Below, piece by piece: positions 14,094 through 30,968 of a DNA stretch of 64,000 nt. Each line of letters starts with the position of its first letter. Positions within the stretch are counted from its first letter, which is position 1. The notes below the pieces were generated by a model. That model was given only the letters and a program-made list of their open reading frames with translations. It did not search any database and was not told the origin of the DNA. The DNA lies in assembly GCA_963732075.1 (NCBI GenBank), contig CAVSYD010000005.1:46483-110482 (forward strand). Direction: 5' to 3'. Source of the stretch: an uncultured Actinomycetes bacterium. Its GTDB lineage: Bacteria > Actinomycetota > Thermoleophilia > Gaiellales > JAICJC01. The position numbers and the translations under genes are program-made.

Positions 14094-14203
14094 TGATTTT
14101 CTCCTTATCTGACTATGGAGCGTTCCGTAGCTCCCGAGGTGGTCAACCTCACGCTACGCAGTCGCGAGAAACTCGCGTGAGCGAGAAAGTAACAACTACG
14201 AGA

Positions 14204-14602: not shown

Positions 14603-14644
14603 CTTTTTCTCCTTTGCCGTGACTAGCGGCAAGCCCACTATACC

Positions 14645-15913: not shown

Positions 15914-18900
15914 CGCGTAGGAGTTGTCCGCGTGGGCGCAGTGGTTGGTCTGTCGACCGAGCGCCCAGCGCCAGACCCAGCGGACCCGAGCGCGGTAAGC
16001 CAGTTCGCCTTATTGGTCGAGTCCGGATCGTACAGCGCGGCCTGCGTGAAGAAGTTCAGTAGGTAGGCTTGGTCGCGCGTATCCGAAGGGTTCGTATTAT
16101 TGCAAGCACCGTGCCATGTGTTATAGAAACCCACACCGGTAGATGCCCACGGGCGAAGGTCGGACCATTGCGTAATAGCTTGGCTGTTTAGAACGGTATT
16201 CGTTAGTCCTCCCATGTGGCCTCCACCCGATAACAGCGGAGCGGAGCAACCAAGAAAGCCTGATGCTATCTGAGGGTCTCGGATCCAGTAATTGCCAATT
16301 GCATTGGCCTGGAGAAGCCACGCATTGATACCAGAGCGATAGTATGCCGCACGAAGCGCAAAATCCGTTCCATAGAATTGCGGCCCAAACGCCGAGCACG
16401 CTCCAATGTCGTTTTTGTAAGAGAATGCTTGGCCGGTTTGCGCTTGCAGTCCCGACCCAAACGGCCCGCTGATATCGAAGATTGCAATCGCGAAGGCCAG
16501 GGTATTCGACTCGCAACCTTGCGCGTCTTGCAGGAATCGGTATGTTCCTGCGAGGCCCATTCCATAGATGGGTGCCGCCGCATCCGTGAAGTCCGTAGCC
16601 AGATATTGCGTCCCCGTGATTTTGTAGGACAGGCCGGAGGCGTCGTCCGCATCGGAAGGAAAGGGATGGTCCACCGTTAGGCTCGTGGTCGAGTTCACCG
16701 CGGTGATGAGCCTCCAAAAGGTGAACGTATTCACTACCGGGGTTCCACTTAAGGCTCCAAAGCTGGTGGAATCAACGGGGATTGAGAACTTATTGGCCGC
16801 AGTCACGGTAACGGTAAAGGTTCCGTTTATAGCGGTCCAAGAGCCTGTGCCTCCCGAGATTTTAATTACGTCTCCGCTAATGTAGCTATGATTTGTTACC
16901 GTCGTCAAGACTGCGGGATTGGCGTTTGTGGCAGAAGAGATTGTAAGACCGTTAGCGGTGGTCGTGCCGGAAACAACAATCATGCTGCCGATCGTACCGG
17001 TGCCGTTCTGGTTGTACTTTATGGTTCCCGCGTTGGCGGTTGGGTCTAGCGTCCAATTCGTTCCAGAGCCCGTTATTGTGGTCGATGAATGCGTTACTGA
17101 AACAGTTCCAGTGGTGTAAATGACCGGGCCGGGAGGGCCTGGAGCCCCGGCGGGGCAAACCGGGCGCACCAGATCGGTAGCGAATAGCGTGCCGGTTCCC
17201 TTGACGGCCATGTCCGCCACAACCGTGCCCGTGCTCCAGGAATTGGCCTGCCCCGTTACTGCCGTTGCGACAGGAGGCGTGGGCGAGAGGCCGCGCCCGT
17301 CATAGCCAATCGTCAGGGTCGCGTCCCCCGTGGTCGCCGTAGTCCCTGTAATGCGGATTATCTCGCCGCCATAGCCGCCGATGACGGCCCAGCACGGCAA
17401 AGTGGTCAGACAGGTTAGATTCTGCGATGTGTGAATTGCGATGCTGGTCGTGGTTGCGTTGATGCCGCCATTCAGTGTCGCTCCCGCCGGTGATCCCGTC
17501 GTACCAAATCCGCGGCCAAACATGTTGTAGTCAATTGACCCAGACGCGCGTGTGTTCCATGCTGCCGCCTCCGCTGGATAGGGGTTATTGTCGTCCTGCA
17601 AGATGGCCGCTTCTATATTGCGCTCGTCTTCGTAGCACCAGGGATTGTACCCGAGGGCAATCATGGGCCCATAGATTTGCGTGGTGTTTGGATCGGTCTG
17701 GATGACCACGCCGTTAGCGTCAATCCCAATCGCACCGATGGTAAGGTCCGCGCAGTTCTCCCCGTTCATGTCAGTCAGGCAAAGACGCGCCGTGTATTCT
17801 CCGGCAATCACCCCGGTTACTGTTGTCGTGGCGCTGGTGGAACTCGTTATGGTAGGACTATTCGGACCTGCGATGATAGACCATTTGTAGGTAAGCCCGC
17901 CTGTCCCGGTGCTAGAGGTGCCCACAAGCTGATTCACGTGGTTCCCGCTCGTGTCCCAAGGCGTGCCGATCTGCGGATTGTTGACCACCCAGCATGGCGC
18001 GGTGGTAGTGGTGCGCAGGACAGGCGTAGCGGTAGCGGTGAGAGGCTTGAACGCGAACCCTTCCGCCCCGTATCCTTCCGAGTTCATCGCGCACTGCACC
18101 TGAGCCGTGGTGCTCGCTGCAATTTGATCCACGACCATCAAGAAGGGCCTGATGGTGTCTTGAAAACGAAGATTCCACCCCGCCGCCGGAATAGTAGGAG
18201 CGCCGCCGCAGAATCCTAAGTTGAGGTCGCCCACTACCGTCGTGTATGGACCGGATATCATGTCGCCTAAGCCATCCGGGCCGCCGAAGCCTGCGGAATT
18301 AGAGAAGCCAGGTTCCTGCACCCCGATGCCGCTATAGGCCACGCCCAAAATAAACTGATTCTTGATGCCGGGAAGCGGCGCTCCCGCTTGCGTTGGTATG
18401 GTAAACGAAATTGTATCTGGACTCGCCGTGGTTGGGACTTCCGCGGTAAAGATTGCTCCTGGGGTATTCGAGAAGTCCCCGAGCGGCCCGGAGACATTGG
18501 CATACATTTGCTTCCACTTAAGCCCCAGCGTGTCAGAAATAATGTATTTTGGGAGAACGCTGATGGGCCAGAGGTTTACAAACGTGTTTATCAGGTGGCT
18601 CGCAGCGGGGCCACACGAGATGGGAGCGGTGCCTCCGATGAAAGGCATGTTAGGGGTGGCATTGGGATAGTTCCCAGCCGCAAAACAAGTGCCCGGCAGC
18701 CCTCGCTGATCCACGGTGAAGTGCTGCGTACCGGGTGCGGTTCCGGTTATCGCAGTTACGCGTAGTTTCTCCGTGCCTGTATTTCCTACGTTGAAATCGG
18801 AAAGGTACACGTAGAACGGAACCGGCGGCCAATCGCAATGCACTCCTAGGCCACAGGGTATTGTGTCAACGTCGAACCCGGTAGCCCCGGAGGTGATGTT

Positions 18901-19434
18901 GGCATGCAGACCACCCTGAGTTAGCTGCGGGCCGGTAGTCACTACTTCAATGAAGGCACGCCCTTTCACGAAGCTCGGGAAGGTTACCTGCCCGGTGTTT
19001 TGGAAAACCCATGCCCCCTGAGCACCCTGCTCGCAAAATATATTACCAGCCACAAGAGAATGGGAACAGTTAGTGGTCGTGTGCGCGATGGTGATGTTGA
19101 TGATCGGAGACGATCCCATATTGCCCATCGAATCCATTGAGGTCACCTGGAACGTATGAGCCCCCACGCCCAGCGAACTTGCGTAAAGCGTGCCTTGCCA
19201 GACTTGGTTGGACAGCGTGCAGAATCCCGTCATGATGCAGGAGCTTCCATCGAAGAGCACGTCCGTGGACACGATGGAACCAGTGGTAGTGGTGGCCGTG
19301 CCTGTCATCTGATACAGGTTGTATATTGTGTCGCTCGGCTGCGGGTTGGCTATCGTGACGGTAACCGCCGCGCTCGCAGTAGATGATAGAATGATGGCCA
19401 TGAAAACCATCAAGAGAGTCTGGCGCAATTTCAT
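15904..19434 (-). CDS. 1176-aa secreted multidomain protein (Ig-like N-terminus, PKD-like segment, small beta-barrel module, helical C-terminal region)
   Basis: Signal peptide MKLRQTLLMVFMAIILSSTASA. PKD-like segment GGLTYKWSIIAGPN...YTARLCLTDMNGE. Module ATNANPAVLTT...ISGGTGSWTAINGTFTV is shared with the 200-aa protein. Confidence 0.7.
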   Translation of the reverse strand: MKLRQTLLMVFMAIILSSTASAAVTVTIANPQPSDTIYNLYQMTGTATTTTGSIVSTDVLFDGSSCIMTGFCTLSNQVWQGTLYASSLGVGAHTFQVTSMDSMGNMGSSPIINITIAHTTTNCSHSLVAGNIFCEQGAQGAWVFQNTGQVTFPSFVKGRAFIEVVTTGPQLTQGGLHANITSGATGFDVDTIPCGLGVHCDWPPVPFYVYLSDFNVGNTGTEKLRVTAITGTAPGTQHFTVDQRGLPGTCFAAGNYPNATPNMPFIGGTAPISCGPAASHLINTFVNLWPISVLPKYIISDTLGLKWKQMYANVSGPLGDFSNTPGAIFTAEVPTTASPDTISFTIPTQAGAPLPGIKNQFILGVAYSGIGVQEPGFSNSAGFGGPDGLGDMISGPYTTVVGDLNLGFCGGAPTIPAAGWNLRFQDTIRPFLMVVDQIAASTTAQVQCAMNSEGYGAEGFAFKPLTATATPVLRTTTTAPCWVVNNPQIGTPWDTSGNHVNQLVGTSSTGTGGLTYKWSIIAGPNSPTITSSTSATTTVTGVIAGEYTARLCLTDMNGENCADLTIGAIGIDANGVVIQTDPNTTQIYGPMIALGYNPWCYEDERNIEAAILQDDNNPYPAEAAAWNTRASGSIDYNMFGRGFGTTGSPAGATLNGGINATTTSIAIHTSQNLTCLTTLPCWAVIGGYGGEIIRITGTTATTGDATLTIGYDGRGLSPTPPVATAVTGQANSWSTGTVVADMAVKGTGTLFATDLVRPVCPAGAPGPPGPVIYTTGTVSVTHSSTTITGSGTNWTLDPTANAGTIKYNQNGTGTIGSMIVVSGTTTANGLTISSATNANPAVLTTVTNHSYISGDVIKISGGTGSWTAINGTFTVTVTAANKFSIPVDSTSFGALSGTPVVNTFTFWRLITAVNSTTSLTVDHPFPSDADDASGLSYKITGTQYLATDFTDAAAPIYGMGLAGTYRFLQDAQGCESNTLAFAIAIFDISGPFGSGLQAQTGQAFSYKNDIGACSAFGPQFYGTDFALRAAYYRSGINAWLLQANAIGNYWIRDPQIASGFLGCSAPLLSGGGHMGGLTNTVLNSQAITQWSDLRPWASTGVGFYNTWHGACNNTNPSDTRDQAYLLNFFTQAALYDPDSTNKANWLTALGSAGSGAGRSVDRPTTAPTRTTPTRWG

Positions 19435-19477
19435 GAATCTTCTTTCCTCTGTCGATCAGGGCGGGGACGTGAACGAG

Positions 19478-20239
19478 CTATAGCCCCTTTAGCGCTAGGT
19501 TCCAGCCCACAATACCGGACCATCCGGACCCTCCATTGCTGACCGACCATTGAGGATTTGTGGCACCCGCGGCCGTGATGATCTTATAGCCTATCGCTCC
19601 ATCCATCGTGGCCGCTGCACAAGTACTTATCGCCAAGGTATAGCTTGAATTTATGGCATTGGTTCCGTCTGCTGCGCAATAAGCAGCTATTCCGGAAACA
19701 ACAATATCATTGGCAAACCCGGTGGTGATGCTGCCAGGCTGAAAGGTTAAAATTCCAGCCCCGGAAGATGTCACCGAACTTATGATGCTTCCGTCCAGCG
19801 CTCCACTACCGCTGACCGTAATACCAGCAATCCAGCAGGCTGCCATGCAATTACTAAAAGAGACTGTTACGGTGGCTCCTGCTGCTGGCGTCAATGTATA
19901 ACAAAGCTGACCTGAAGAAACGGATCCTGCGCCTCCGCTTGCAATCCCGACACAAGTAAATGAGTTGCTTGGCGTGCTGGTGATAGCAAGGGGGTCGCTG
20001 GTATCACAGTGTTGAGAGAAACATCCGGATACCACTATCAAAGCGGTGGACCCGGTGTTGGTAATGGCCGCCGTGGTTCCCGTGGCCGCTCCTGTGGTTT
20101 GCTGGGCATCGATGAAGGTCGGTGGGGTAGGCGTGGTGCTGCATGATGCCCCATTTCCGCACCCGCCTCCGCCGAGTCCCGGCATGAACTGCGCGTGGAG
20201 CGCTAAGCTGACGAGAAATAAACCAATGAGTGTTTTCAT
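19478..20239 (-). CDS. secreted Cys-containing beta-rich protein (253 aa), paralog-like to 7829..8617
   Basis: ATG at 20239 overlaps the upstream stop as ATGA. Signal peptide MKTLIGLFLVSLALHAQ. Confidence 0.6.
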   Translation of the reverse strand: MKTLIGLFLVSLALHAQFMPGLGGGGCGNGASCSTTPTPPTFIDAQQTTGAATGTTAAITNTGSTALIVVSGCFSQHCDTSDPLAITSTPSNSFTCVGIASGGAGSVSSGQLCYTLTPAAGATVTVSFSNCMAACWIAGITVSGSGALDGSIISSVTSSGAGILTFQPGSITTGFANDIVVSGIAAYCAADGTNAINSSYTLAISTCAAATMDGAIGYKIITAAGATNPQWSVSNGGSGWSGIVGWNLALKGL

Positions 20240-20796
20240 CTTAAAATCTGAGCGTTCAGCGTTACAGCCCCAGGAGTGATAGAGGAGGTTGTATTGTTGC
20301 AAACTGAAACGTTGATCGTGTCAGCAGTGGGGTAGACCTTGAGTGTCAGCATTCCGCCTGTGGCGGGGCTGTACCCCGTCACTGCGTCCGTATTGGCATT
20401 GAACGAAGTGTTGATGGTGTCCGTTGTCAGCGTGCCGGTAGCGCTCAGCGTTTCTACGCGGCAGGTGGCGCTTGTTAGAATGCTCGTCGACAGGGCCTTG
20501 GTGCCGGTAAAGAAACCGCCCCGCATCACGATAACGTTGACCGTGACGGCCCCTGGAGTGATAGACAATCCCGTGTTATTGCAAACCGAGAAGTTTACAG
20601 TGTCTGCCGTGGGATACGCTTTGACTACAAGGATTCCCCCGGTAGTGGGGGCATACCCGGTAACCGCATCGGTATTCGCGTTGAAATTAGCGAGAATGTT
20701 ATCTGTGGTGAGAGTGCCTGTCGCGGCCAGAGTTTCAACCCGGCATGTCGCTGAGGAAAGAGCGGAGGTGGAAAGCGCCTTGGTGCCGCCGAATAT
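20236..20796 (-). repeat. two tandem copies of a ~92-aa C-terminal module; a third copy ends the 1022-aa gene at about 8617..8880
   Basis: GTKALSTS..SATCRVETL.ATGTLTTD......FNANTDAVTGY.P.TGG.L..K.YPTADT.N.SVCNNT...ITPGAVT.N. The 1022-aa gene ends ...TGTLSTDVILFTTNASIKAVTGYVPASTGGFSINAYPTADTVNFEGCNWTSGTVDPGSITLNWKVIR. Confidence 0.8.
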
Positions 20797-22089
20797 CTTG
20801 GTTGGAAGCCCCCCGCCGCCACCGCTAGCGCACGCCGACCCCACCGACGTACATAATGTTCCGCCGGTGCCGGAGAGCGCTGTAACAGCCGTGCCAGCTA
20901 TCTTGAAGCTATTCCCAGTGCCAGCCGTGTCGTAGGTTTTGTTGGTCAGGGTGTCAGTGGTGGCCTTGGCGATTAACGTGTCCGTGGCTGCCGGAATGGT
21001 GATGGTTCCAGATGCGGCGGCTGTCGCCTGAACTACAGTTCCCCCGCTTGCGGAACCTGGAAAGCCAGCCCCAGGAGGACAATCAAAGCACCACATTGGC
21101 GCTAAGGCTTGAAGCGTTGAGGATGAGGAAGCATAGAAAGATTGAAAATTGGTCTTCCCTGCTGGCGTTGGGAATATAGTGAAGTCTCCAAGGCCACTCA
21201 TGCCCGCGCATGTGAAGGTGCGACCTGGCGTACCGTCATTGGTTAACTTGATTGTGAGAAGCTGTCCAGTCACGAACCCCGATATGGTCCCGCACGTAAT
21301 GTTCGCCCCAAGCGTGGCAGTGATGGTCAGAACCGTGCCAGAGCCACCAGAGATGGGTGGCGCGGTGGTTATGGTGCCGAGAGGCGTAAGTGCGGCTCCA
21401 CCTCCGCTACTGCATGGAGCGCTGGAGGCATCCACGTGAACACAATCCCCTGATGATCCAGTAACTACCGCTGGAGTGCCTGAAGTGGCTTTGATTACGC
21501 CCGTTAATGATCCCAATCCACCGCATGTCCCGCTCGTCCCATTCACCTTAACGCAATCCGTGGGCGAACCCGTCACCGCGGACGGAACCCCCGCGGTCGC
21601 ATAAATCACTCCGGTCAACAGCCCAAGCCCAGCGCACGGAGCCCATACGACAGTGCTGCCAGTATACTGAATGCAATATTGAGCCATCGCCCCAGAAGTG
21701 TCTAACTGCGACAACTGAATGATCGCCGGATTTGGACCAGCCGCACAAGAGAATCCGCATGGATTTGGAGTTGTCGGGATGGTCCATGTCATCGAATAGG
21801 CCGGCGCTCCGGTCAAATGAAAGTTCGCCGTATAGAAAGATGGCTGTGGCGTCGCGGTCGTATTCGCGTATAGTTGGACCGAGAAGGTGCCCGTGGAGGG
21901 GTCTAGGTTCACTGTCGTAGGGGCATTGCTGACAACGTGCCCGCCCGGTGCTGTGAATGGGCGATTGGGCGTCACCACGATGTAGCCGGTGGCGTGGACT
22001 CCTGCCGAAATCTCAACCGTCCACGAAACGGTGTTGAGCTGCGCAAATGCAGCCCCCGTTAATCCGACCAGTAAGGCTAATAGTTTCAT
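20236..22089 (-). CDS. 617-aa secreted tail-fibre-like protein with a duplicated C-terminal module
   Basis: ATG at 22089 overlaps the upstream stop as ATGA. Signal peptide MKLLALLVGLTGAAFAQ. Fibre-like repeats LTGVIYATAGVPSAVTGSPTDCV and LTGVIKATSGTPAVVTGSSGDCV. Confidence 0.7.
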   Translation of the reverse strand: MKLLALLVGLTGAAFAQLNTVSWTVEISAGVHATGYIVVTPNRPFTAPGGHVVSNAPTTVNLDPSTGTFSVQLYANTTATPQPSFYTANFHLTGAPAYSMTWTIPTTPNPCGFSCAAGPNPAIIQLSQLDTSGAMAQYCIQYTGSTVVWAPCAGLGLLTGVIYATAGVPSAVTGSPTDCVKVNGTSGTCGGLGSLTGVIKATSGTPAVVTGSSGDCVHVDASSAPCSSGGGAALTPLGTITTAPPISGGSGTVLTITATLGANITCGTISGFVTGQLLTIKLTNDGTPGRTFTCAGMSGLGDFTIFPTPAGKTNFQSFYASSSSTLQALAPMWCFDCPPGAGFPGSASGGTVVQATAAASGTITIPAATDTLIAKATTDTLTNKTYDTAGTGNSFKIAGTAVTALSGTGGTLCTSVGSACASGGGGGLPTKIFGGTKALSTSALSSATCRVETLAATGTLTTDNILANFNANTDAVTGYAPTTGGILVVKAYPTADTVNFSVCNNTGLSITPGAVTVNVIVMRGGFFTGTKALSTSILTSATCRVETLSATGTLTTDTINTSFNANTDAVTGYSPATGGMLTLKVYPTADTINVSVCNNTTSSITPGAVTLNAQILR

Positions 22090-22688
22090 TGATAGCTCGA
22101 CGGCGCCGCGCACGGGAATTTCATAGACGTTTGGCCGCCCACGAGATTAGACAGCGTCCCCGACGATGGCACAGGCACGGTCCACGCAATGATGGTAGGG
22201 TTTCCGCCGGCATCCGATACGATCGGGCTCACAGACCATACCGAAGCGGTGGCCTTTGGCGCGCGCGTAGACATTACGATGCTTTGCGCACCCCATGCAC
22301 CGAACCCGCTGGTGTCCACATTGATGGAGAGCGCGTTCGCCGACGTCGGCGTTACAAGATGGAAGCCGTTGAGTGTCGCCCATCCGCCCGTCGCCCCTGA
22401 GATGAAGACGAGAGCCACCTGCGTTACCCCGGTCGCAAAATATAACCCGTGCGCAGTCGCCGTCATGATGCCTGGGTTGGCGTTGCTGACCGTGGTAACA
22501 GCAATAGTAGACGTGCTCTGTGACGACAACGCCTTGCACGTGTAATCCGCTACGCCCGCCGTGTAGTGGATAATCGTCGTCACCGCGTCTTGTGGAGGGA
22601 GCGAAGAGATGATGACGTTCGATTGCGCCCACGCGAGGGCCGGAGTCAGCAGTAACAGTAGTCGCATTCTCGTAAGTCGCATGAGCAT
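22086..22688 (-). CDS. 200-aa secreted protein with a small beta-barrel module
   Basis: Signal peptide MRLLLLLTPALAWAQ. Module VSNANPGIMTATAHGL...ISGATGGWATLNGFHLVT..SANALSINVDTSGFGAWG. Confidence 0.6.
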   Translation of the reverse strand: MLMRLTRMRLLLLLTPALAWAQSNVIISSLPPQDAVTTIIHYTAGVADYTCKALSSQSTSTIAVTTVSNANPGIMTATAHGLYFATGVTQVALVFISGATGGWATLNGFHLVTPTSANALSINVDTSGFGAWGAQSIVMSTRAPKATASVWSVSPIVSDAGGNPTIIAWTVPVPSSGTLSNLVGGQTSMKFPCAAPSSYQ

Positions 22689-22691
22689 AGT

Positions 22692-23561
22692 TTACCTTTC
22701 AGGTGGACCGAGCGGAGGAGGGCCATCGGATGACGTCGCTCCCATCTTCTTCTTTATCAGGTCGTTCAATTCCTGGACCCTCGTGCCGTGAAACTGATCA
22801 TTGATGCGGCTGTTCTTGGCGTACGATGTCCCGAGCTCCGCATCCGCCTTCTTTACGAAATCCATGTAGGACTGCCCCGGCTTCACTTCGGAGATGTTGT
22901 TCTTCACCGCATAGCTTGCGAGCGCCTCATCTTTTGCGGTAGCCGCGGCCCTGCGCTTATCGATGATGGCTTGCTCTAGTTCGGAGAGGTTGGCATTGCC
23001 TGTGGGCTTGGGGGTTGTATCTGCCGTATCCGTGTACATAAGTGGTTTGCCGTCCTCCTGAAGCATAACTGGACGTCCGTTGGCTTGGGGGAATTCCGGC
23101 GGGGGCGGACCCGGTGGCGTTGCGGCCCGCTTGTCCACGGTTGCCTTTGCTCTGTTCAGTGCTTGGGTAGCGGGATTGGGTTGTTCCCCCGGTACGGGGA
23201 CCGTGCGCCCAGATGGAAGCACACGCGATGGTGGCTGGATCGGCGTGAGGTCGGGGATATGATTCCCATAAGCCTGCCCCTGCGTCGGGGTGCGCGGCGT
23301 CGGCGTGGCTTGCACGGGGGGCTTGAGTGGCCCCGGAGTGCGGCCGGACGGAAGCGTGCCGGGTATAGGGCTCAGGTCCGGAATCTGATTCTGATAAGCA
23401 CTCCCCTGAATGACCGGTGCCCGAGGCGTAGTCGGTGCCTTCGGTGGTATCGCTACCGGTCCCGGCTTACGTCCCGTTATCGTTTCCGTTGCTGGTATCG
23501 GACTTAGGTCCGGGATTGGCTGCGGATCTACTGGGGGCACGTCTATACCACCCTTTGGCAT
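22692..23561 (-). CDS. Pro-rich repeat protein with a helical C-terminal domain; 5' end uncertain
   Basis: ATG at 23561 (MPKGGIDVPP...). An alternative GTG at 23609 lies at the compositional junction. Three IPDL(S/T)PI-containing repeats. Confidence 0.5.
   Translation of the reverse strand: MPKGGIDVPPVDPQPIPDLSPIPATETITGRKPGPVAIPPKAPTTPRAPVIQGSAYQNQIPDLSPIPGTLPSGRTPGPLKPPVQATPTPRTPTQGQAYGNHIPDLTPIQPPSRVLPSGRTVPVPGEQPNPATQALNRAKATVDKRAATPPGPPPPEFPQANGRPVMLQEDGKPLMYTDTADTTPKPTGNANLSELEQAIIDKRRAAATAKDEALASYAVKNNISEVKPGQSYMDFVKKADAELGTSYAKNSRINDQFHGTRVQELNDLIKKKMGATSSDGPPPLGPPER
23163..23516 (-). repeat. three tandem Pro-rich repeats of about 32-44 aa
   Basis: IPDLSPIPATETITGRKPGP..., IPDLSPIPGTLPSGRTPGP..., IPDLTPIQPPSRVLPSGRTVPVP... 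Confidence 0.75.
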
Positions 23562-23599
23562 CTGGCTATAGCGATAATCCGCGAGGCCTTGCTTGCCGC

Positions 23600-23620
23600 C
23601 CTGAACCACTTTCCCGGCAG
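23600..23620. other. approximate compositional / taxonomic breakpoint between segment A and segment B
   Basis: GC and codon style change within about 100 bp. A STAS-like reading frame loses its expected stop here and reads into unrelated sequence. Confidence 0.6.
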
Positions 23621-23923
23621 CGTCGCAACGGCCTCGTGGAAGGTGTCGGCGCTGAGGATCCGTCCGTGCCTGCCCATCCGCAGGTCTATGGACACCCGGT
23701 ATGTGTGGCACAGCTCGGCCGCCTCGAACAGGACATGGGTGCCGTCGGGATCGAGCCAATCGAGCTCCGAGCAGTCGATCTCGATCCGCTTCACTTCGGC
23801 ATCCGCCAATGCCGCGACCACGGCCAGAAGCACGCCGATCGAAATTGGCCAGCCCGACTCCCCTCCAGCCGAAGCCGCACACACCCGGCCTCGACCGGCG
23901 AGGCGGTGATCTTGAGCGACCAA
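23612..23923 (-). pseudogene. STAS-domain (anti-sigma-factor antagonist-like) gene fragment, 3' end cut at the junction
   Basis: VKRIEIDCSELDWLDPDGTHVLFEAAELCHTYRVSIDLRMGRHGRILSADTFHEAVATL resembles the C-terminal two-thirds of SpoIIAA/RsbV-type STAS. The frame then continues 25 codons into segment A. Confidence 0.35.
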
Positions 23924-24023
23924 TCCGACACCGCCCGCACCTTCCGTGCTCGACCGACCACCGACTACAGCCGCGCGTAGCGTAGCTCCGGTTTATCGCG
24001 CCCGGATGGGAGGACTGCCGGGC

Positions 24024-24224
24024 CTACGTGGAGAGACTGACGCGCCTGCGCAGCTGCGCGATGAGCTCGAGTTCGAGGTCGTGGTCGCCGCCCGCCTCGT
24101 CGGCGGCAATCTCTTCGATCATGAGCGGGAGTGAGGCGATACAGATGCTCTCGCCCTGTTGCCTGAGGATGACCTCGAACCGGCGTACGGCGCGAGACGT
24201 CGCGGAGCCGGGCTCGCCGGTCAC
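24024..24224 (-). CDS. hypothetical protein (66 aa)
   Basis: GTG start overlaps the MarR-frame stop as GTGA. Natural-looking composition (RRFEVILRQQGESICIASLPLMIEEIAADEAGG...). Confidence 0.4.
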   Translation of the reverse strand: MTGEPGSATSRAVRRFEVILRQQGESICIASLPLMIEEIAADEAGGDHDLELELIAQLRRRVSLST

Positions 24225-24637
24225 GCCGGCTGCCTGGAGAGATGGCTGCGCGCCTCGTCGAGGTGTTCAGGCAGCTGCTCGCGTCGCGGCGGACGGCGGC
24301 AACGGCAGCGCGGAGCCGGTCGGCTCGGGCGTCGCTGAGCTGGACGAGGGCCGTCCGGCCGTCGCCGTTGGCGGCGCTGCGGACGACCAGGCCGGCCGCT
24401 CCGGTTCGGTCCACGAGCTCGGTGACGGAGCTCTGGGCGAGCTGGAGAACCTCTGCCAGCTGCCCGATCGAGCGGGTTTGGCTCGCGTCCGGGGCACCCT
24501 GGATTGCGAGCAGCAGGAGATAGCGCTGAGGCGTGAGACCGACCTCGCGCACGGCGGCATCTCCGTGGGCGAGGCCGGCGCAGAACGCGCCGGAACTCCG
24601 CCGCGCGCAGGATCTCGTCCTGGGTTACGGCTGGCAT
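24221..24637 (-). pseudogene. MarR-family transcriptional regulator, interrupted by about two frameshifts
   Basis: MPAVTQDEILRAAEFRR in one frame. REVGLTPQRYLLLLAIQGAPDASQTRSIGQLAEVLQLAQSSVTELVDRTGAAGLVVRSAANGDGRTALVQLS (winged helix-turn-helix) in a second. The C-terminus returns to the first frame. Confidence 0.65.
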
Positions 24638-24659
24638 ACGAGCCCACCGTAGCAGAATC

Positions 24660-24688
24660 ATCGTGATACGATGCATCGGGATACGATG
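24660..24688. promoter_or_regulatory. operator-like overlapping palindromes and a direct repeat in the MarR divergent intergenic region
   Basis: ATCGTGATACGAT (24660..24672) and CGATGCATCG (24669..24678) are palindromic. GATACGATG is repeated at 24665 and 24680. The region is locally AT-rich. Confidence 0.4.
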
Positions 24689-24720
24689 GAGTTTGCCGTC
24701 CAACTGCCAGGAGGTTCCCG

Positions 24721-24906
24721 ATGACGGCTCACCCTCAACCGGATCTACGCCGCGGATCGTTTGCCGACGGCCAGTCCGTGCGCCCGGCCGAGCCTCGGCC
24801 CGAGGGCCGCTTCAGCACCGGTCAGGAGGGCGCAAGGCCGCGCCCGTCGCGCCGGCACATCCGCCTCCAGCGGCCCCACCGGGAGGCCGGCGGCCGCAGA
24901 GAGTGA
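24721..24906 (+). CDS. small hypothetical protein with GSFA-type motifs; 3' part may be frameshifted
   Basis: Strong Shine-Dalgarno CCAGGAGG 6 nt upstream of the ATG. RRGSFADGQ and EGRFSTGQEG resemble short repeats of small actinobacterial stress proteins; this is from memory. Confidence 0.4.
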   Translation: MTAHPQPDLRRGSFADGQSVRPAEPRPEGRFSTGQEGARPRPSRRHIRLQRPHREAGGRRE

Positions 24907-24935
24907 TTATCATCTGAGGTGACTGAGGGGGTGCC

Positions 24936-25506
24936 ATGGTTGGGGAGGCGGTTCTCGAGGATGTGGGTTCGGGAGTTGCGCCGGCAAGCCCCGGCTGGTT
25001 CGTCGTGAATGTGCGCGACGCGGCGTGGATCCACAACGAAGCGTTCGGTGCCCGCTGCGTCTTCGAGTCTGACCGGCGAGTCCTGCGCGACACCCCCGAC
25101 CGGGACGACCAGCGCTTCGGCCAGGTGGGGATCACACTGGCGGTGCTCGAGCCGGGCCGACCGAGCGGTCTCTACCACGCCGAGTCGGCGGAGGAGTCGT
25201 TTCGTCCTCCAGGGGGAGTGCGCACTCCTGATCGAGGGCGATGAGCGACCACTGCGGCAGTGGGACTTCGTCCATTGCCCGGGAGGCCCGCGCACGCGTT
25301 TGTCGGAACGGGTGGGGCTCACCGGTGCGTTCTGCTCATGGTCGGGCCCGACCAGAGGAAAAGACAATCGTGTATCCGCCGCTCCTCGCTCGCATTGCGC
25401 CAGGGTGCGGGGGTGCGAGACGAGACCGACTCGCCAGCCGAGGCGTATGGCATATCTGCCACATTGGCGGCCCGGCCCACCCCAACCCCAAGCCGAGCTT
25501 CCGTGA
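24936..25506 (+). pseudogene. cupin-domain protein, several frameshifts
   Basis: GWFVVNVRDAAW...LEPGRPSGLYHAES, then FVLQGECALLIEGDERPLRQWDFVHCP, then HAFVGTGG..CVLLMVG...LALRQGAGVRDETDSPAEAY. These pieces lie in three different frames. Confidence 0.6.
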
Positions 25507-25539
25507 ACAGCAGAAAGCCACAGGATAGGGAGGCCCGCG

Positions 25540-26251
25540 ATGCCTGAACCGCGACAGATCACAGCGCTACTCGAGCTGGAGCGGGACCAGGAGGGGGTGT
25601 TCTCCGAGTGCCTCACGGCCGCCGAGCGGGGCGAGCGCGGTACCCAAGGAACACCCCGCACCGAAGGACTACTTCGCTCATGTACTAGGCGGAAAGCGAC
25701 AGATGCTGCAAGCCCTGGTCGCGGCACGCACAGGCGCCGTCCCGGACGCGAGCCACGACGCACAGGAGGTGTTCGAAGCGAATGCCGACCGCTCGTTCGA
25801 CGATCTCGAGCGCGAAGCCGGTCAGGTGGCCGCCGATCTCCGAAGGGAGGTCGAACACCTCGACCGGGACTCCCTCGGTTCATCACCCGAGTGGGTCTCC
25901 GACGACACGCTCGCCGACGAGATCATCCAGCAGTGCGTCACCCACGGCCTCGTCCAGCTCTTCGAGCCACTGTGCGCACGCGGCCACACGGATCAGGCAC
26001 TCCAAACGCAGCTCCGGTTCATCGCCGCGCTGCCACCCGACACGAGCGTGCTCCAGCGATCACGGGCGCTGTACAACCTCGGCTGCCTCCACCTCAGAGC
26101 CGGCCACGCAGATGACGCCGTCATATCGATCCGCGCCGCAGGACAGCTTCGACCCACGCTCCTCGAAAATGCCAGACAGGACCCGGACCTGGCACCGATC
26201 AAAGACGGGCTGTCCCAGGGCGAAGGTTTGGGCGCCCCACTCGGCGGGTAG
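25540..26251 (+). pseudogene. hypothetical protein, apparently one frameshift near 25650
   Basis: MPEPRQITALLELERDQEGVFSECLTAAE in one frame continues as YFAHVLGGKRQMLQALVAARTG... in the frame of ORF 25703..26251. The C-terminus is helical-repeat-like. Confidence 0.4.
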
Positions 26252-26260
26252 CGCATTCGC

Positions 26261-26524
26261 ATGTGGTCAAACCTGATCGGACTCGCGCTCTGCATGTTCC
26301 TCCTCGTGCTGTGGCTGGGCGCGAGGCGGGAGGATCGCGAAGCGATACAGCGCGACTGCCACCATCAGTGGACGCTGGATTCCCTCTACGGCGAAGGCGA
26401 GATGTGGTTCCGGCGCTGCACCGTGTGCGGCAAACAGGAGCCGGTCCCAAACCCCAAGCGCACACCGCCGCGACTGCATGATGAACGAGCACGCATCGCG
26501 AGTCGACGCCGCATGCACAAGTAG
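26261..26524 (+). CDS. small membrane-anchored protein with a CxxC motif (87 aa)
   Basis: ORF track. TM segment LIGLALCMFLLVLWLG, then CHHQW...CTVCGK. Confidence 0.4.
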   Translation: MWSNLIGLALCMFLLVLWLGARREDREAIQRDCHHQWTLDSLYGEGEMWFRRCTVCGKQEPVPNPKRTPPRLHDERARIASRRRMHK

Positions 26525-26562
26525 GCACCTGCTGAGCCCGGGAGCAGCCCTGCAGGGCGACG

Positions 26563-28053
26563 TTAATCGCTCGCGGTCAAGGGCGTGGCGACATCTTCGA
26601 GCTGACGCTTTTCGGCGTCCACTCCGAGCCACACCTCGATCACCCCGGCGGCGATCATCAGAGCCGCTCCGAGCAGGTAGCCGAGAAACACCGTGGTGCG
26701 GTTGCCGGTGGCGATGTGTGTCCGTAGAGCGCCGGCCCGATGATCCCGCCCATGCCGGTGCCGACCGCGTAGAAGAACGCGATCGCCATCGCGCGCATCT
26801 CGATCGGGAAGATCTCGCTCGACGGTCAGGTACGCGGAGCTCGCTCCGGCGGAGGCGAAGAAGAAGATCACGCGACCACCCGAGCGTGAGCTCGTCGCGC
26901 TCGAGCAGCCCTGCTGGAACAGCCACCCGACGACGCCAGGAGCACGCCGGAGAAGACGTAGGTGCACGGCGATCATCGGCTCGGCGGCCGAGCGAGTCGA
27001 AGAGGCGGCCCGAGCAGGAGCGGGCCGAGGAAGTTGCCGAGCGGCGAAGGGCAGCAGATAGCAGCCGACGCGGTCGGCGGCGACGCTGATAGAAGTCGTG
27101 AGCACGAGCGCGTAGGTGAAGAAGATCGCGTTGTAGAGGAACGCCTGCGAGACCATCAGCGCGAGCCCGAGCACCGAGCGGCGCGGGTAGTCGCCGACGA
27201 GCAGCGTGCGGGCGATCGTCGCCGAACCCGATCGGCTCGCGCTGGCGCACCTCGATCGTCCGCTCGGCGGCTCGGGCAGCGGCTCGCCGGTGCCGCGCTC
27301 GACGCGCTCGCTCGATGTCGCCGCGACAACCTCTGCCTCGGTCGTCCGCCTGGCCGTGGGTCATCAGCCAGCGCGGGCTCTCGGGCAGGAACTGCCGCAG
27401 CAGCGAGCACGACCAGCCCGAGCACGCGCCGATGCCGAAGCCGAGCCGCCAGCCGAGCGCCGACGGCGAAGCAGCGTCGGGTCGAGAAGCACGAGCGACG
27501 CCAGCCGCGCCGACCGCAGTGCCGATCCAGTAGAGCCGTTGATCGCGAGGTCGACCCAGCCGCGCACGCCGCGCGGGGATCAGCTCGTCGATCGCCGAGT
27601 TGATCGCCGAGTACTCGCCGCCGATGCCCGCGCCGGTGAAGAACGCGGCAGATCGCGAACGCTCGCAGGAGTTCCAGGAGAATGCCGTCGCCGGCGGTCG
27701 CGACCAGGTACAGGCCGAGCGTGACCATGAACAGCCGCTTGCGCCCGAAGCGGTCGGTCAGGTAGCCGAACACGAGCGCGCCCGAGGACCGCGCCGGCCA
27801 CGTAGATCGATGCCGCGCAGGCCGACCTGCGGTCGGCGTGAGGCGCGAGCGTGCTCGGTCTTCTCGAGCTGGCCGCAGATCGCGCCGACGATCGTGACCT
27901 CGAGCCCGTCGAGGATCCAGACCATGCCGAGCGCGAGACGACCAGCCAGTGCCAGCGCGACCACGGCAGGCGGTCGAGGCGAGCGGGGACGTCGGTCTCG
28001 ACGACGTCCCCGCCGGCGGCCAGACGGGGCCCCCACAGGCCGGAGGCGCTCAC
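26563..28053 (-). pseudogene. MFS transporter (sugar-porter / metabolite:H+ symporter-like), at least five frameshifts
   Basis: Fragments are spread over three frames: ARLDRLPWSRWHW, LGMVWILDGLEVTIVGA, FGYLTDRFGRKRLFMVTLGLYLVATA, RGWVDLAINGS, PESPRWLMTHGQ-type loop, LGLALMVSQAFLYNAIFFTYALVL, TVFLGYLLGAALMIAAGVIEVWLGVDAEKRQLEDVA. Confidence 0.7.
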
Positions 28054-28220
28054 CGCGCCGGCCCCGCGCCGCCGGGATGTGACCGCGGCACCTGCGCCGG
28101 TGTGAGCGACCGCACGTGCTTGTCCTTCTTGCCGGCCTCCAAGCGCGCGACCCGGCCCTCCAGGGCCTCGACCGCGCGTTCGAGCGAAACCAATCTGCCG
28201 ATGTCCGAATCCTGGTTCAT
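28050..28220 (-). CDS. small coiled-coil protein (56 aa)
   Basis: MNQDSDIGRLVSLERAVEALEGRVARLEAGKKDKH... Its stop overlaps the MFS GTG start as GTGA. Confidence 0.4.
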   Translation of the reverse strand: MNQDSDIGRLVSLERAVEALEGRVARLEAGKKDKHVRSLTPAQVPRSHPGGAGPAR

Positions 28221-28263
28221 GTGATGCGGATTCCCGGCGCCTGGCGGGCCCAAACCTGGCCGG

Positions 28264-28593
28264 CTACGGGGTATCCGCTCGGCGTTTGAGGTCGGGTTTG
28301 GAGACGACGATGTATGACTCGCGTTCTTCGACCACCACCTCGACGGCGAGATCCTCGTGTCCGGGGTAGACAATGAACCGGTCGACGGGCTTCACGACCT
28401 GCACGTACTCCGCGAGCGGCAATTCGACGGCACGTGAGCAGGCGGGGTTGTCGCATTCGCACACGAACGGCACCGGTTCGTCGGGGGCCACGCCTCCGGC
28501 TTCCTCGAGCGCGGCCCGACGCTCGTTGTGGGCCTGGAACGCCCGTTCGTTCTTCTCGGCGCGAGTGAGACGCGTGTTGCCGTTTGAACTCAT
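28264..28593 (-). CDS. hypothetical protein (109 aa)
   Basis: Internal ATG (MSSNGNTRLTRAEKNERAFQAHNERRAALEE...FVCECDNPACSR...). The upstream part of the ORF-track frame is Arg/Pro/Gly-rich and looks non-coding. Confidence 0.55.
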   Translation of the reverse strand: MSSNGNTRLTRAEKNERAFQAHNERRAALEEAGGVAPDEPVPFVCECDNPACSRAVELPLAEYVQVVKPVDRFIVYPGHEDLAVEVVVEERESYIVVSKPDLKRRADTP

Positions 28594-28953
28594 GAACGAC
28601 CGGCCCTCGCGGCGGGTTCGTGTTTGGCATCCTCGCGAGCGGGGCACATCGGTCTCGTTCCCATATGACGAATGCACCCGACCCACATCCACCGCCGCAG
28701 CCGGACGAGCCGAACCCGCCGGCTCCGCCGCACCCCGACGTCCCGGCACCGACGGCTTGACCGGCGCCACGAGCCCTGATCAGCAATGAGAGGGAACGAT
28801 CGCACGCCGGACGCCAGTTTTCCCCACGGTGACGTGTTCGAAACGTTTGCATCGCGGGGCGCAGCGAGCCCGCGGGTGCACGCCCGCCCGAGGTTTCGTC
28901 CCGCGCGGGAGCGGGCATTGCCGACAGATGACCAGGGCACGGGGGGTAGTTCG

Positions 28954-29346
28954 ATGGGATCCGAGTCGGAGGGACGTCTGGGTGAGTGGCGGTTCGCCGC
29001 CACCCCAGAGCACGTGCCACTGATGCGGCACGCCGTGGTGGGGATGGTCGAGGGCCTCGGCATCGATCGGGATGCCGTCGCCCTGGCGGTGACAGAGGCG
29101 GTCGCGAACGCGGTTCGCCATGCCTATCCCGGAGGCCCCGGCGAGGTGCGGGTGGTGGTTTCTGTCGTCGGCGACGGGGTGGTCGTGTCGGTGAGCGACG
29201 ACGGCATCGGGGTGCGGGGGTTCACCGCGACTCAGAGCCCGGGCGTCGGGCTCGGACTGGGGCTGATCAGAGCGCTGGCCGACCGGGTGCGCATCGAGCC
29301 GGGGAGCAACGGCACGCTGGTCGAGATGGTCTTCGAACGGGCCTGA
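28954..29346 (+). CDS. anti-sigma-factor serine kinase (RsbW/SpoIIAB-like HATPase)
   Basis: MGSESEG... with N-box-like TEAVANAVRHAY and G-box-like DDGIGV...GVGLGLGLI. Confidence 0.75.
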   Translation: MGSESEGRLGEWRFAATPEHVPLMRHAVVGMVEGLGIDRDAVALAVTEAVANAVRHAYPGGPGEVRVVVSVVGDGVVVSVSDDGIGVRGFTATQSPGVGLGLGLIRALADRVRIEPGSNGTLVEMVFERA

Positions 29347-29712
29347 CTACCCCTGGGAGCCGCTCGCGGCCGAGAGTGCCGCCGCCCGAGTCGGGTACAC
29401 GGTGATCAGCTCGGAGATCGAAACGAGATCGAACAGCCGGGCCACCGGGCCTCCGGGCGGCGCCACCGCCACCAGGGCGCCTCGGCCGCTCCCGTCCTGT
29501 TCAGCACGGCGATACCCATCCACGAGCACCCCCACGATGCTGCTGTCGATGAACTCGGTCTGCGAAAGGTCGACGATCACATCGCCGCCGGCGCCCGCGA
29601 TTCGCTCGATCTCCGACCGGAGCTCCGGCGCCGTTGAGACGTCGTGCTCGCCAAGCAGGGCGAGCACATGGACGTCGTCCTCCGGCACCACCTCGATGCG
29701 ACCGACGCTCAT
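29347..29712 (-). CDS. STAS-domain anti-sigma-factor antagonist (RsbV/SpoIIAA-like)
   Basis: LLGEHDVSTAPELRSEI...VIVDLSQTEFIDSSIVGVLV. ATG at 29712 is preceded by GGAGGGG. Confidence 0.8.
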   Translation of the reverse strand: MSVGRIEVVPEDDVHVLALLGEHDVSTAPELRSEIERIAGAGGDVIVDLSQTEFIDSSIVGVLVDGYRRAEQDGSGRGALVAVAPPGGPVARLFDLVSISELITVYPTRAAALSAASGSQG

Positions 29713-29779
29713 AGCCCCTCCGGCTCCCACGGCGACAGTCGATCTTAGCGTCCGCCGCCCTGCAGGACGGCTCGTTCCC

Positions 29780-30547
29780 CTATGCCGCCTCTTCGGGTAC
29801 CAGCTGGTCGCGCAAGGCGTCGAACGACCTGCGCAGCAGTCGCGAGACGTGCATCTGGCTGATGCCGGTTCGGTCGGCGATCTCGGACTGCGTCAGCCCG
29901 TGGTACACGCGCAGGGCGACGATCTCGCGTTCCCGGGACGGCAGGGTGCGCAACGCCTGTGAAACGACGTCGCCGTCAGCCACCGCTTCGAAGCCGCGCT
30001 CCTCGCACACGAGCGCAGGATCGGCGTTCAGCCGCTCCTCCGTCGTGCCGCCGTCGACGCGGGCGGGCTCGTTGAGCGATTGCGCCGTGTATGCCCGCTG
30101 CGCCGCCACCGCCTCGGCGATCGTTTCCGGCGGCTCCCCGATCGCGTCGCCGAGCTCCTCGAGCGTCGGCGGGCGGCCGAGCTCATGTCCCAGTCGCAGC
30201 CGGGTCGCCGACACACGCCGGACGAGCTCCTGGAGCGAGCGGGGCATGCGCACAGCCCACCCGTGATCGCGGAAGAGGTGCATGATCTCACCCTCGATGG
30301 TGCGGGCCGCGTAGGCCCGCAGCGGCACTCCTCGCGAGGGCTCGTACCGGTCGACGGCGTGGATCAGACCGACATACGCGGTCTGAACGACGTCCTCGTG
30401 AGCGAGCCCACGCCCCTTGTAGCGGCGGGCGATCGACCGCGCCAGCCCCAGGTTCCGTTTCACCACCTCTTCGCGACAGCGCTCGTCACCATCACGGCGA
30501 TAGACGGCGAGCAACTCAATATCGGTTCGATGGGCACCAGCTTCCAC
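29780..30547 (-). CDS. group 3 sigma-70 family factor (SigB/SigF type)
   Basis: Region 2: LARSIARRYKGRGLAHEDVVQTAYVGLIHAVDRYEP. Region 4 helix-turn-helix: LTQSEIADRTGISQMHVSRLLRRS. Confidence 0.85.
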   Translation of the reverse strand: MEAGAHRTDIELLAVYRRDGDERCREEVVKRNLGLARSIARRYKGRGLAHEDVVQTAYVGLIHAVDRYEPSRGVPLRAYAARTIEGEIMHLFRDHGWAVRMPRSLQELVRRVSATRLRLGHELGRPPTLEELGDAIGEPPETIAEAVAAQRAYTAQSLNEPARVDGGTTEERLNADPALVCEERGFEAVADGDVVSQALRTLPSREREIVALRVYHGLTQSEIADRTGISQMHVSRLLRRSFDALRDQLVPEEAA

Positions 30548-30631
30548 GGTCGACTCCTTTCAGGGCCTGATACCGGATACTGTGCGCTCGCCCGCGTTCG
30601 TCAAACATCCGGTCGCAGGCGACCCGCCGGC

Positions 30632-30889
30632 TCACAGCCGGCGAAGCGGCGGTCGCTGCAGGCTGACCGTGACGCGGCCACCCTCAGCCGTCGCGCCGAG
30701 AGCCTCGAGTGCGGCCACCGACTCGCGGCACCAGGCGTCTCCGCCTCCGGAGATGGTCAGCACCGCACTCGCCCCCTCGAGAGCCGCCGTCACGGTGACG
30801 TCGCCGTCCCGGCAGCTCGTCACGATGCCGGCGACGGCCCTTCCGCGCGCGGTCTGCGGCAAGTGGCGGAAGACCGGCCTTGACTGCAA
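30632..30889 (-). CDS. possible small hypothetical protein upstream of the sigma factor gene
   Basis: Composition is more protein-like than the overlapping plus-strand frame. The two frames share third-codon positions, so GC3 cannot discriminate them. Confidence 0.3.
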   Translation of the reverse strand: MQSRPVFRHLPQTARGRAVAGIVTSCRDGDVTVTAALEGASAVLTISGGGDAWCRESVAALEALGATAEGGRVTVSLQRPPLRRL

Positions 30890-30968
30890 CAGCCGTCACC
30901 GCGTGGCGCGCGATCTCTCCCCGCGCCGGGGTGTCGGTGAGCCTGAGCGAGACGGTACCGTGCATGTG

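Follow-up and report, generated by a model that had tools for sequence, protein, structure and literature searches.

The window, by which we mean the whole 64,000-nt stretch of DNA analysed here, brings together two unlike pieces of DNA at about 23.6 kb: mid-GC, phage-like sequence on the left (segment A) and GC-rich sequence on the right (segment B), with one gene cut on each side. Judged in part by a Gaiellales name in a protein cluster, the lineage of segment B is probably an uncultured, Gaiellales-like member of the Actinomycetes. The features on which the argument turns are as follows.

1-23,606: segment A, mid-GC (~56%) phage-like DNA, recognised by GC and tetranucleotide profile and by Pfam and PHROG matches; extends beyond the left end of the window
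22,692-23,606, minus strand: 3' part of a Pro-rich gene (~305 codons), placed by alignment to L002 and P0023; 5' part missing
23,607-23,624: breakpoint interval of 18 nt (minus strand GACGCTGCCGGGAAAGTG), matched in BLAST by neither set of relatives
23,625-23,973, minus strand: 5' part of a STAS-like gene (STAS_2 match); last 41 codons missing
23,625-39,054: B1-like fragment, ~99.7% identical to five independent long-read assemblies, noisy patches excepted
26,717-27,936, minus strand: patch inside an MFS transporter gene, with ~12% private mismatches and ~44 private indel columns
38,877-38,963, minus strand: tRNA-Leu(GAG), beside the switch from B1-like to divergent sequence; one extra nt, at 38,913, compared with the B1 reference
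39,055-64,000: B sequence of a different lineage, diverging from B1 by 4-10% of nucleotides as far as 48.4 kb at least

Segment A is phage-like DNA

The genes of segment A lie almost all on the minus strand, and intact, abutting ORFs cover 90% of it. Pfam and PHROG identify a Gp3-like protein (PF18897), an RNase_T exonuclease, a RecE/Cas4-like exonuclease and a T5orf172 protein; further products are a GH16-like protein and large secreted Ser/Thr/Gly-rich proteins. We take PF18897 to be the family to which phiC31 and phiBT1, two Streptomyces phages, owe their recombination directionality factors. When ten A proteins were compared with PHROG, the RecE-like exonuclease alone was recognised. In tblastn against a phage collection the Gp3-like protein had no match, and the A exonuclease found only matches of <30% identity, in phages of mixed hosts. 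In IMG/VR, exact 30-mers from either side of the join had no match and the protein of the A relative L002 had a weak match only. A 200-aa A protein, for which nothing was found in JGI metagenomes, occurs exactly in a separate Logan assembly.

As the earlier note had observed, A proteins carry signal peptides: nine have short, Lys/Leu-rich ones, of a kind presumably associated with diderm bacteria. Among the cellular homologues of the GH16-like protein is one with the name Terriglobales, and the phage of segment A probably had a diderm host such as Acidobacteriota. Among the 120 relatives listed for the Gp3-like protein, most lie on contigs of 45-71 kb and none on one larger than 126 kb, the majority of these contigs being short-read; a 106-kb A relative (L020) checked for host flanks held phage genes only. 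The Gp3-like gene stands ~37 kb into a 54.5-kb relative as against 20.7 kb in the window, an offset which implies that an upstream phage module of ~16 kb is missing at the junction. Compared with its relatives the phage thus appears incomplete, lacking this module and at least 187 codons of the Pro-rich gene.

Composition and position of the join

GC content is 0.52-0.61 over 1-23,000 and 0.64-0.76 over 24,000-64,000, or ~0.56 for segment A and 0.70 for segment B as wholes, a gap of 14 points. An abrupt change within some 100 bp had been claimed for this place; the two sides do differ, but the step is not that sharp, since the Pro-rich gene on the A side already has 62-68% GC, the first 600 nt of B have only ~64-66%, and the maximum-likelihood change point falls at 23,095. 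The comparison of tetranucleotide profiles that had been recommended as a check separates the halves cleanly: chunks of A correlate at 0.84-0.91 with A and at 0.61-0.79 with B, chunks of B correlate at 0.96-0.99 with B, and the whole segments correlate with one another at 0.75. By composition and gene affiliation, the two sides belong to different organisms.

The exact position of the join comes from homology and not from GC. The A relative L002 matches the window in BLAST up to 23,606, and nine relatives of the B lineage match it down to exactly 23,625 and none beyond, so that the breakpoint is bracketed to 23,607-23,624. Read by eye, an alignment of these 18 nt to L002 shows 13/18 identical positions and a 3-nt gap, and they may be diverged A sequence.

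Two genes are cut at the join. On the B side, STAS orthologues in the relatives are intact at 159 aa and end in FHEAVA followed by QPDVQAGLTSALEAYRLAARAAAESSMLAVRRAARRQPGRE and the stop, whereas the ORF in the window ends in FHEAVA followed by TLPGKWFRAASKASRIIAIARCQRVV and the stop, the chimeric frame running past the join to a stop at 23,543. The truncation reported by the earlier note is therefore real, as the relatives' ORF goes on, but it falls after FHEAVA rather than after FHEAVATL. Past 23,625, the relatives continue with the last 41 STAS codons and then with HTH_25, SCP2, GDE and oxidase genes. What remains of the STAS gene in the window is further disrupted by two indels that shift the frame, at 23,857 and 23,836.

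On the A side, the Pro-rich gene contains three ~44-aa repeats with the motif IPDLSPIP (direct repeats D1 and D2). That it has no start of its own, as previously suggested, is borne out by two relatives. L002 extends the frame 561 nt upstream of 23,606, adding at least 187 codons and still open at the end of its contig. P0023, the one match found with the 396-aa junction ORF as query, is a distant homologue in which residues 271-483 align to query residues 167-380, with ~270 residues N-terminal of the aligned part; the 40.7-kb phage contig that encodes it has no further gene in common with the window.

The join in independent assemblies

A second occurrence of the same join in independent assemblies had been named, together with long reads spanning it at even coverage, as what would refute a chimera, and we did not find one. 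The native order (66-aa gene, 159-aa STAS, HTH_25, SCP2, GDE) occurs in ten places: five are ENA assemblies built from long reads, each of a different sample, and five are Logan contigs, with L007 and L003 giving further views of this B lineage. DNA was available for nine of the ten, each from a different sample or assembly; the join is in none of these, all of which stop matching at 23,625 and continue with native sequence. Nor does the junction 37-mer occur in JGI metagenome contigs or in IMG/VR. The related B assemblies are products of Microflora Danica, a long-read project that worked from Nanopore data alone with metaFlye and a single Medaka round (PMC12313526). By analogy with these relatives, the source contig is probably a Nanopore metaFlye assembly too.

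Segment B is a mosaic with a noisy consensus

The genes of the window next to the junction are 99-100% identical to B1, and in the B1-like fragment that they open there are two patches of private noise, at 23.6-25.7 kb and at 26.7-27.9 kb. The second of these shatters the MFS transporter gene, which is intact, with 488 aa, in L003/L006, L012 and L014. At 39,055 (~39.05 kb), adjoining the tRNA-Leu, segment B switches lineage. To the right of this point the differences from B1 are biased to third codon positions, which indicates true divergence, and the 90% cluster of a DUF2252 protein at 59,477-60,967 holds no member from a B1 assembly.

Of 28 B genes, at least 12 are broken by error-like private indels, which cluster at 23.6-25.7, 26.7-27.9 and 39-42 kb. 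Homopolymer errors were rejected as their source, as most lie outside homopolymer runs; together with an excess of insertions over deletions, this fits a mixed-haplotype consensus better. The idea that quality collapses at the junction only, as under a single bridging read, was dropped because patches of the same type occur at 39-42 kb. Nor is the contrast between a clean A and a noisy B decisive, since the noise in B resembles that of a mixed-strain consensus and a real insert specific to one strain would also be clean.

Second gene copies on the source contig

The 676,496-bp source contig carries A and B proteins alike, and exact matches to proteins of both sides occur in run ERR11718639. 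The contig encodes an intact 147-aa STAS protein with the native C-terminus (P0192), which is not encoded in the window and is 89% identical to that of B1. It also encodes the oxidase of the native downstream region (P0031), with 91% identity to the B1 protein. Both belong to a lineage ~10% divergent in protein sequence, and a second, intact STAS from such a lineage on the same contig implies that the contig mixes populations. With the native downstream genes on the same contig, B-like DNA may lie to either side of segment A. The join may be a simple end-to-end fusion or, alternatively, one boundary of a B-A-B layout, for which a single chimeric read would be insufficient and a second false link would be needed.

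No recombination signature at the boundary

The earlier note had found no integrase, tRNA or repeat at the boundary, and within the window this holds. Neither Pfam nor PHROG gave a match to an integrase or recombinase family among the 18 A-side ORFs in 23.6 kb. The only tRNA in the window is the tRNA-Leu, 15 kb from the junction. In the window, repeats that could pass for att sites at the junction do not exceed chance level, and an 11-nt inverted repeat flanking it was likewise judged to be at chance level. Adapter 10-mers, barcode remnants and Ns are absent from the junction.

At the one end of A that lies in the window, a prophage boundary at an att site is not seen, as the boundary cuts two ORFs and has no significant junction repeat; nor is a complete, collinear prophage, as the Pro-rich gene is cut short and the ~16-kb module is missing. 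A Mu-like phage or transposon has a defined terminus and a short target-site duplication. In L002 the gene that holds the junction runs on, so that the junction is not an element terminus, and the host duplication that an insertion would imply (at least 315 nt, ~10% diverged) is not a short target-site duplication. The boundary has the form of an illegitimate junction, without homology, between phage interior and host DNA, which is equally expected from a chimeric read.

Discussion

Here, we propose that the join at 23.6 kb is probably an artefact of long-read metagenome assembly and not biology. The earlier note had preferred a chimeric mis-assembly, and the present findings strengthen that reading: the join is private to this contig, both genes are cut, a recombination signature is lacking, and the contig holds a second STAS copy. 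A recent illegitimate insertion, which that note gave as the alternative, is less likely. The artefact is the most likely explanation because no independent assembly that we found shares the join. Three results, namely the second STAS and oxidase copies, the lineage switch and the frameshifted B patches, suggest that the consensus is a mosaic of populations that occurred together.

How might such a contig have arisen? The sample would have held an abundant phage A of ~56% GC, probably with a diderm host, along with two or more actinobacterial populations related to each other: B1 and a lineage that differs from B1 by ~5-10%. During assembly the B populations may have been collapsed, with switches between them, leaving a mosaic consensus with frameshifted hybrid patches. 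At 23,625 a B1-type path with a free end would then have been joined to the interior of the phage, in the Pro-rich gene and beside its tandem repeats, the source of the false join being probably a chimeric read or a false graph bridge. Several features are those of a metaFlye-type chimeric contig or strain mosaic: the switch of composition and taxonomy is abrupt, two genes are cut without a recombination signature, a single assembly has the join, the lineage switches and indel-rich patches occur nearby, and both populations are found in one run. Unlike in that model, the native downstream genes are present on this contig as a divergent copy, so that the layout may be B-A-B.

A real phage-host hybrid formed by illegitimate recombination is, in our estimate, unlikely. 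Here a truncated phage A would have been fused to a B1 fragment, from the cut STAS gene to the tRNA-Leu and beyond, as a defective element of the specialised-transducing kind, and would have integrated by homologous recombination in the manner of Campbell near the tRNA-Leu of a related actinobacterial chromosome, producing a partial duplication with an intact resident STAS (P0192) and an imported truncated copy. Such an event would account for the blunt, repeat-free cut through one phage gene and one host gene, which is the trace that illegitimate recombination leaves; for the second, intact and divergent STAS with its oxidase on the same contig; and for the end of the B1-like fragment beside a conserved tRNA-Leu, where the lineage switches. 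The Gp3-like protein (PF18897) encoded by A also speaks for it. Set against this are the GC gap and clearly unlike tetranucleotide profiles of the two sides, the nine Sec signal peptides and Terriglobales-like GH16 homologues, which point to a non-actinobacterial host, and 23.6 kb of A without an integrase. To these can be added the private frameshifting indels in the B1-like fragment, as expected of a poorly supported or mixed consensus, and the absence of the join from every independent assembly examined. That 0/120 listed Gp3-like relatives lie on a contig above 126 kb counts weakly in the same direction, as these contigs are mostly short-read. Above all, the hybrid needs a chain of rare events whose product then grew dominant in a soil population.

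The closest known counterpart to such a hybrid is found in the specialised transducing phages lambda dgal and dbio, in which an illegitimate junction links phage interior to host DNA and the phage genes on one side are lost. Their heterogenotes are predicted to hold a resident and an imported copy of host genes, and two STAS copies are present here. Unlike in lambda, neither an att site nor an integrase was seen, the evidence of composition and signal peptides is for a different phylum, and the imported copy has indels like those of consensus errors. The cross-phylum version of this model, a physically real "transduction heterogenote" in which a phage of a diderm host picked up a 15-kb actinobacterial fragment and recombined near the tRNA-Leu into a related lineage, we regard as distinctly improbable.

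It is very improbable that the contigs were concatenated after assembly, through an error of scaffolding, binning, curation or deposit that joined them without a gap. A blunt junction free of Ns and adapters, and material of three origins on one contig, would suit such an error. However, the contig has 676,496 bp under NCBI and ENA sources alike, so the join probably predates the deposit; no gap-free scaffolding step was found in the documented pipeline of the related project (PMC12313526), and a breakpoint within A is no obvious contig end.

The least credible explanation is a degraded prophage remnant, in which legitimate integration nearby was followed by a deletion that took away the phage head module together with the 5' part of the Pro-rich gene, and also host DNA as far as the STAS 3' end. 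It would explain why both genes are truncated at a single point and why an upstream module present in relatives is absent, but the supposedly deleted host genes are intact elsewhere on the contig (P0192, P0031), the A genes are fully intact and show no decay, the tetranucleotide profile, signal peptides and GH16 homologues argue against the host range, and all other assemblies of the lineage lack it. An integrated prophage like phiC31, with a serine integrase and a Gp3-type recombination directionality factor, shares with segment A the Gp3-like protein (PF18897) and a position next to chromosomal DNA. It differs in that the boundary here falls within a phage gene and a host gene, that 23.6 kb hold neither an att repeat nor an integrase, and that this phage family is otherwise found on phage-sized contigs.

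What, then, does the join mean? If it were real, it would be a remarkable case of illegitimate phage-host recombination across phyla in soil, and in its heterogenote form would imply cross-phylum entry of phage DNA; no tested result requires a real join. If, as we think, the join is an artefact, the main value of the finding is a quality flag on the deposited 676-kb contig, probably from a MAG, in which a phage and two or more related actinobacterial populations would be mixed. Phage-host links, prophage calls, horizontal transfer and pseudogene counts taken from this contig would then all be wrong, and its frameshifted B genes would be consensus errors rather than pseudogenes.

Results

We propose that the join between segment A, the phage-like left part of the window, and segment B, its actinobacterial right part, is probably an assembly artefact. 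On the B side, which carries genes for MarR, STAS, cupin, MFS, a sigma factor, anti-sigma kinases and CYTH/CHAD, relatives were sought by a genome scan with the frame-corrected STAS sequence; further look-ups supplied five ENA assemblies built from long reads of separate samples, and contigs from five other runs in Logan, one of these without DNA. All ten share a native order of a 66-aa gene, STAS (159 aa), HTH_25 (253 aa), SCP2 and GDE, followed in the long loci by an oxidase as well, and in each of the nine loci aligned as DNA the match to the window stops at exactly 23,625. L003, identified by the scan (OY969804.1; the 3.79-Mb chromosome of a MAG, uncultured Actinomycetes bacterium isolate MFD00731.bin.c.4), matches the window over 33,942-23,625, and past that point it extends into 10 kb of high-GC sequence that is missing from the window. 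The STAS-like ORF ends ...FHEAVA-QPDVQAGLTSALEAYRLAARAAAESSMLAVRRAARRQPGRE-stop in the relatives and ...FHEAVA-TLPGKWFRAASKASRIIAIARCQRVV-stop in the window, making the latter the host gene minus 41 codons. The loss of the normal STAS end proposed in the earlier note thus stands, but the break falls after FHEAVA and not after FHEAVATL.

The A side is largely made up of intact, abutting ORFs, with the following features:

1-23,606, mostly minus strand: segment A, intact abutting ORFs over 90% of the segment
22,086-22,688: 200-aa protein, with relative P0002 in its 90% cluster
Segment A: Gp3-like protein, PF18897 match
Segment A: RNase_T exonuclease, recognised family match
Segment A: RecE/Cas4-like exonuclease, recognised family match
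Segment A: T5orf172 protein, recognised family match
Segment A: GH16-like protein, recognised family match
Segment A: PKD-domain protein, recognised family match

P0002 is encoded on L002 (JAWVGW010121305.1), a 1,982-bp NCBI metagenome contig that is 81-89% identical to the window from 21,990 to 23,606. Beyond 23,606, L002 runs on for 561 nt (187 codons in frame, still open at the contig end), an extension with no match anywhere in the window. The sole other homologue found for the Pro-rich gene cut at the junction, P0023 (554 aa), aligns through residues 271-483 to residues 167-380 of the window protein, an offset from which about 270 N-terminal residues would be expected. The phage gene is therefore short by at least 187 codons, in line with its having no clear start. 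Homology on the two sides narrows the breakpoint, first placed at 23560-23660, to 23,607-23,624; read from the alignments by eye, 13 of these 18 nt agree with L002, allowing a 3-nt gap, and the stretch is possibly diverged A sequence, in which case the junction would be essentially blunt. The Pro-rich gene also contains, at 23,100-23,560, three diverged tandem units of ~132 nt (~44 aa; motif IPDLSPIP...SGRTP), the last ~80 nt from the junction, and its repeat content differs in L002.

As had been noticed from the sequence alone, the boundary is free of marks of recombination: no integrase family was matched among the 18 A-side ORFs, the only tRNA in the window is a distant tRNA-Leu (38,877-38,963), and such repeats as lie near the junction are internal to the Pro-rich gene, apart from a few short matches at chance level. 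An 11-nt imperfect inverted repeat (23,578-23,588 / 23,630-23,640; TCCGCGAGGCC / GGCCTCGTGGA) brackets the junction and is likewise judged to be at chance level. Neither adapter 10-mers nor Ns were found at the junction, and the junction 37-mer has zero occurrences in JGI metagenome contigs and IMG/VR.

The abrupt switch between A and B is upheld by composition, which falls into two clean classes: GC is 0.52-0.61 across 1-23,000 and 0.64-0.76 across 24,000-64,000 in the window profile, while tetranucleotide correlations are 0.84-0.91 with the A profile for chunks left of ~24 kb, 0.96-0.99 with the B profile for chunks to the right, and 0.75 between A and B. Locally, however, the GC step is blurred (62-68% in the A-side Pro-rich gene, ~64-66% in the first 600 nt of B), and the maximum-likelihood GC change point, 23,095, lies off the true break.

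The contig sizes of Gp3-like relatives, mostly 45-71 kb with a maximum of 126 kb among the 120 homologues listed, are consistent with free phages whose genomes measure roughly 55-70 kb, and the family looks uncharacterised. The closest relative (69% identity) lies on a 54.5-kb Logan contig with the order large structural proteins, YqaJ exonuclease, Gp3-like protein and helicase. Its Gp3-like gene is ~37 kb from the contig start, against only 20.7 kb between the gene and the junction in the window, so that ~16 kb of phage, head module included, is missing at the junction. Nine A proteins have a short N-terminal signal peptide rich in Lys and Leu, in several cases ending ...AQ, in agreement with the A-Q signal peptides described earlier. 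These nine (5,950-22,688; Sec-type; including proteins of 1,176, 1,022 and 625 aa) are Ser/Thr/Gly/Ala-rich and without a PHROG match, which is unusual in a phage "structural" region. Short signal peptides would point to a diderm host. Many GH16-like homologues have carboxypeptidase-regulatory-like domains, and one cellular homologue is named Terriglobales. Together, the GH16 homologues, the short signal peptides and the 56% GC weakly suggest an Acidobacteriota-like host and not a 70%-GC actinobacterium.

Window quality was judged against five near-identical independent assemblies of lineage B1, an uncultured Gaiellales-like actinomycete, and nearly all differences are private to the window. 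They are dense in patches at 23.6-25.7 kb (~2% mismatches, 16 indel columns), 26.7-27.9 kb (26,717-27,936; ~12% mismatches, ~44 indel columns) and 39-42 kb (31 indel columns). Frameshifts disrupt no fewer than 12 of 28 B genes, among them STAS, MarR, cupin, MFS, SecG, GT4, AKR and AIRS, of which MFS, SecG, GT4, AKR and AIRS are shattered by the second and third patches; in the relatives MarR (152 aa), cupin (204 aa) and MFS (488 aa) are intact. The indels are mostly outside homopolymers, with more insertions than deletions, and mismatches in the MFS patch show a moderate third-position bias (47/32/74 by codon position). In our reading the noisy patches are not pseudogenes but a consensus drawn from two mixed lineages. 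An arylsulfatase-like ORF at 62,034-63,716 (560 aa, mostly ~800 aa in its 90% cluster) is probably cut short by a further consensus error. Long-read loci of the same lineage in ERZ25039518 and ERZ25039522 (L005/L010 and L013) also carry single frameshifts, with MFS called as 250 or 226 aa and GDE split, which indicates that occasional indel errors are common in this data set. No comparable damage was seen in segment A: a separate Logan assembly (run ERR11718639) encodes its 200-aa protein without any difference. Since a 242-aa protein of the B side is likewise present unchanged in that run, phage and actinobacterium occur together in one sample.

Exact look-ups place A-side and B-side window proteins on one 676,496-bp contig, listed under NCBI and ENA, together with two proteins not encoded in the window. 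P0192 is an intact 147-aa STAS with a native C-terminus, sharing 89% identity with P0187 of B1; P0031 is a 422-aa oxidase, 91% identical to the copy that lies 3.6 kb past the breakpoint in relatives. Because their 90% clusters hold one member per other assembly, from the native locus, the two most plausibly represent the native locus of another lineage, roughly 10% divergent, that is also present on the source contig. The junction-proximal window genes are 99-100% identical to B1, as is (~99.7%) the stretch 28.0-39.05 kb; divergence then rises to 4-10%, starting at 39,055 (92 nt from the tRNA-Leu 5' end) and reaching at least to 48.4 kb. Differences to the right of 39,055 fall predominantly at third codon positions (16/7/82 by position in a peptidase S15 gene) and hence reflect real evolutionary divergence; the switch is either an assembly strain-switch point or a recombination boundary. 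Further observations are a 1-nt insertion at 38,913 in the tRNA-Leu relative to B1 and a plus-strand ORF (45,780-49,655; 1,291 aa; ~1,278 aa in its B1 orthologue) with internal repeats of ~276 nt, units 72-93% identical.

Discussion

How might such a contig arise? The relatives were generated in the Microflora Danica long-read project, which used Nanopore-only data, metaFlye and one round of Medaka (PMC12313526), and we infer that the window's own contig came from the same metaFlye/Medaka pipeline. Related populations in such data can be collapsed into a mosaic consensus, and free ends can be connected by a chimeric read or by a spurious bridge via an abundant phage. The chimeric mis-join preferred in the earlier note is supported by the absence of the join from all other assemblies examined. 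Its main difficulty is that P0192 and P0031 share the contig, so that A may have B-like DNA on either side, in which case two false links would be needed.

That B-A-B layout would also result if a real phage-host hybrid had integrated in Campbell fashion, as happens in a specialised-transduction heterogenote. We nevertheless regard a hybrid as unlikely: composition and host range are mismatched, no integrase was matched in the 23.6 kb of A and no att site was seen, the supposedly imported fragment carries error-like indels, the join is missing from every other assembly examined, and a chain of rare events is required. Post-assembly concatenation, a variant of the artefact reading, is given little weight, and a prophage remnant with a deletion, which the intact second locus contradicts, slightly less.

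The junction is thus most likely not a biological feature, and the contig is unfit for conclusions about phage-host links, prophages, horizontal transfer or pseudogenes.
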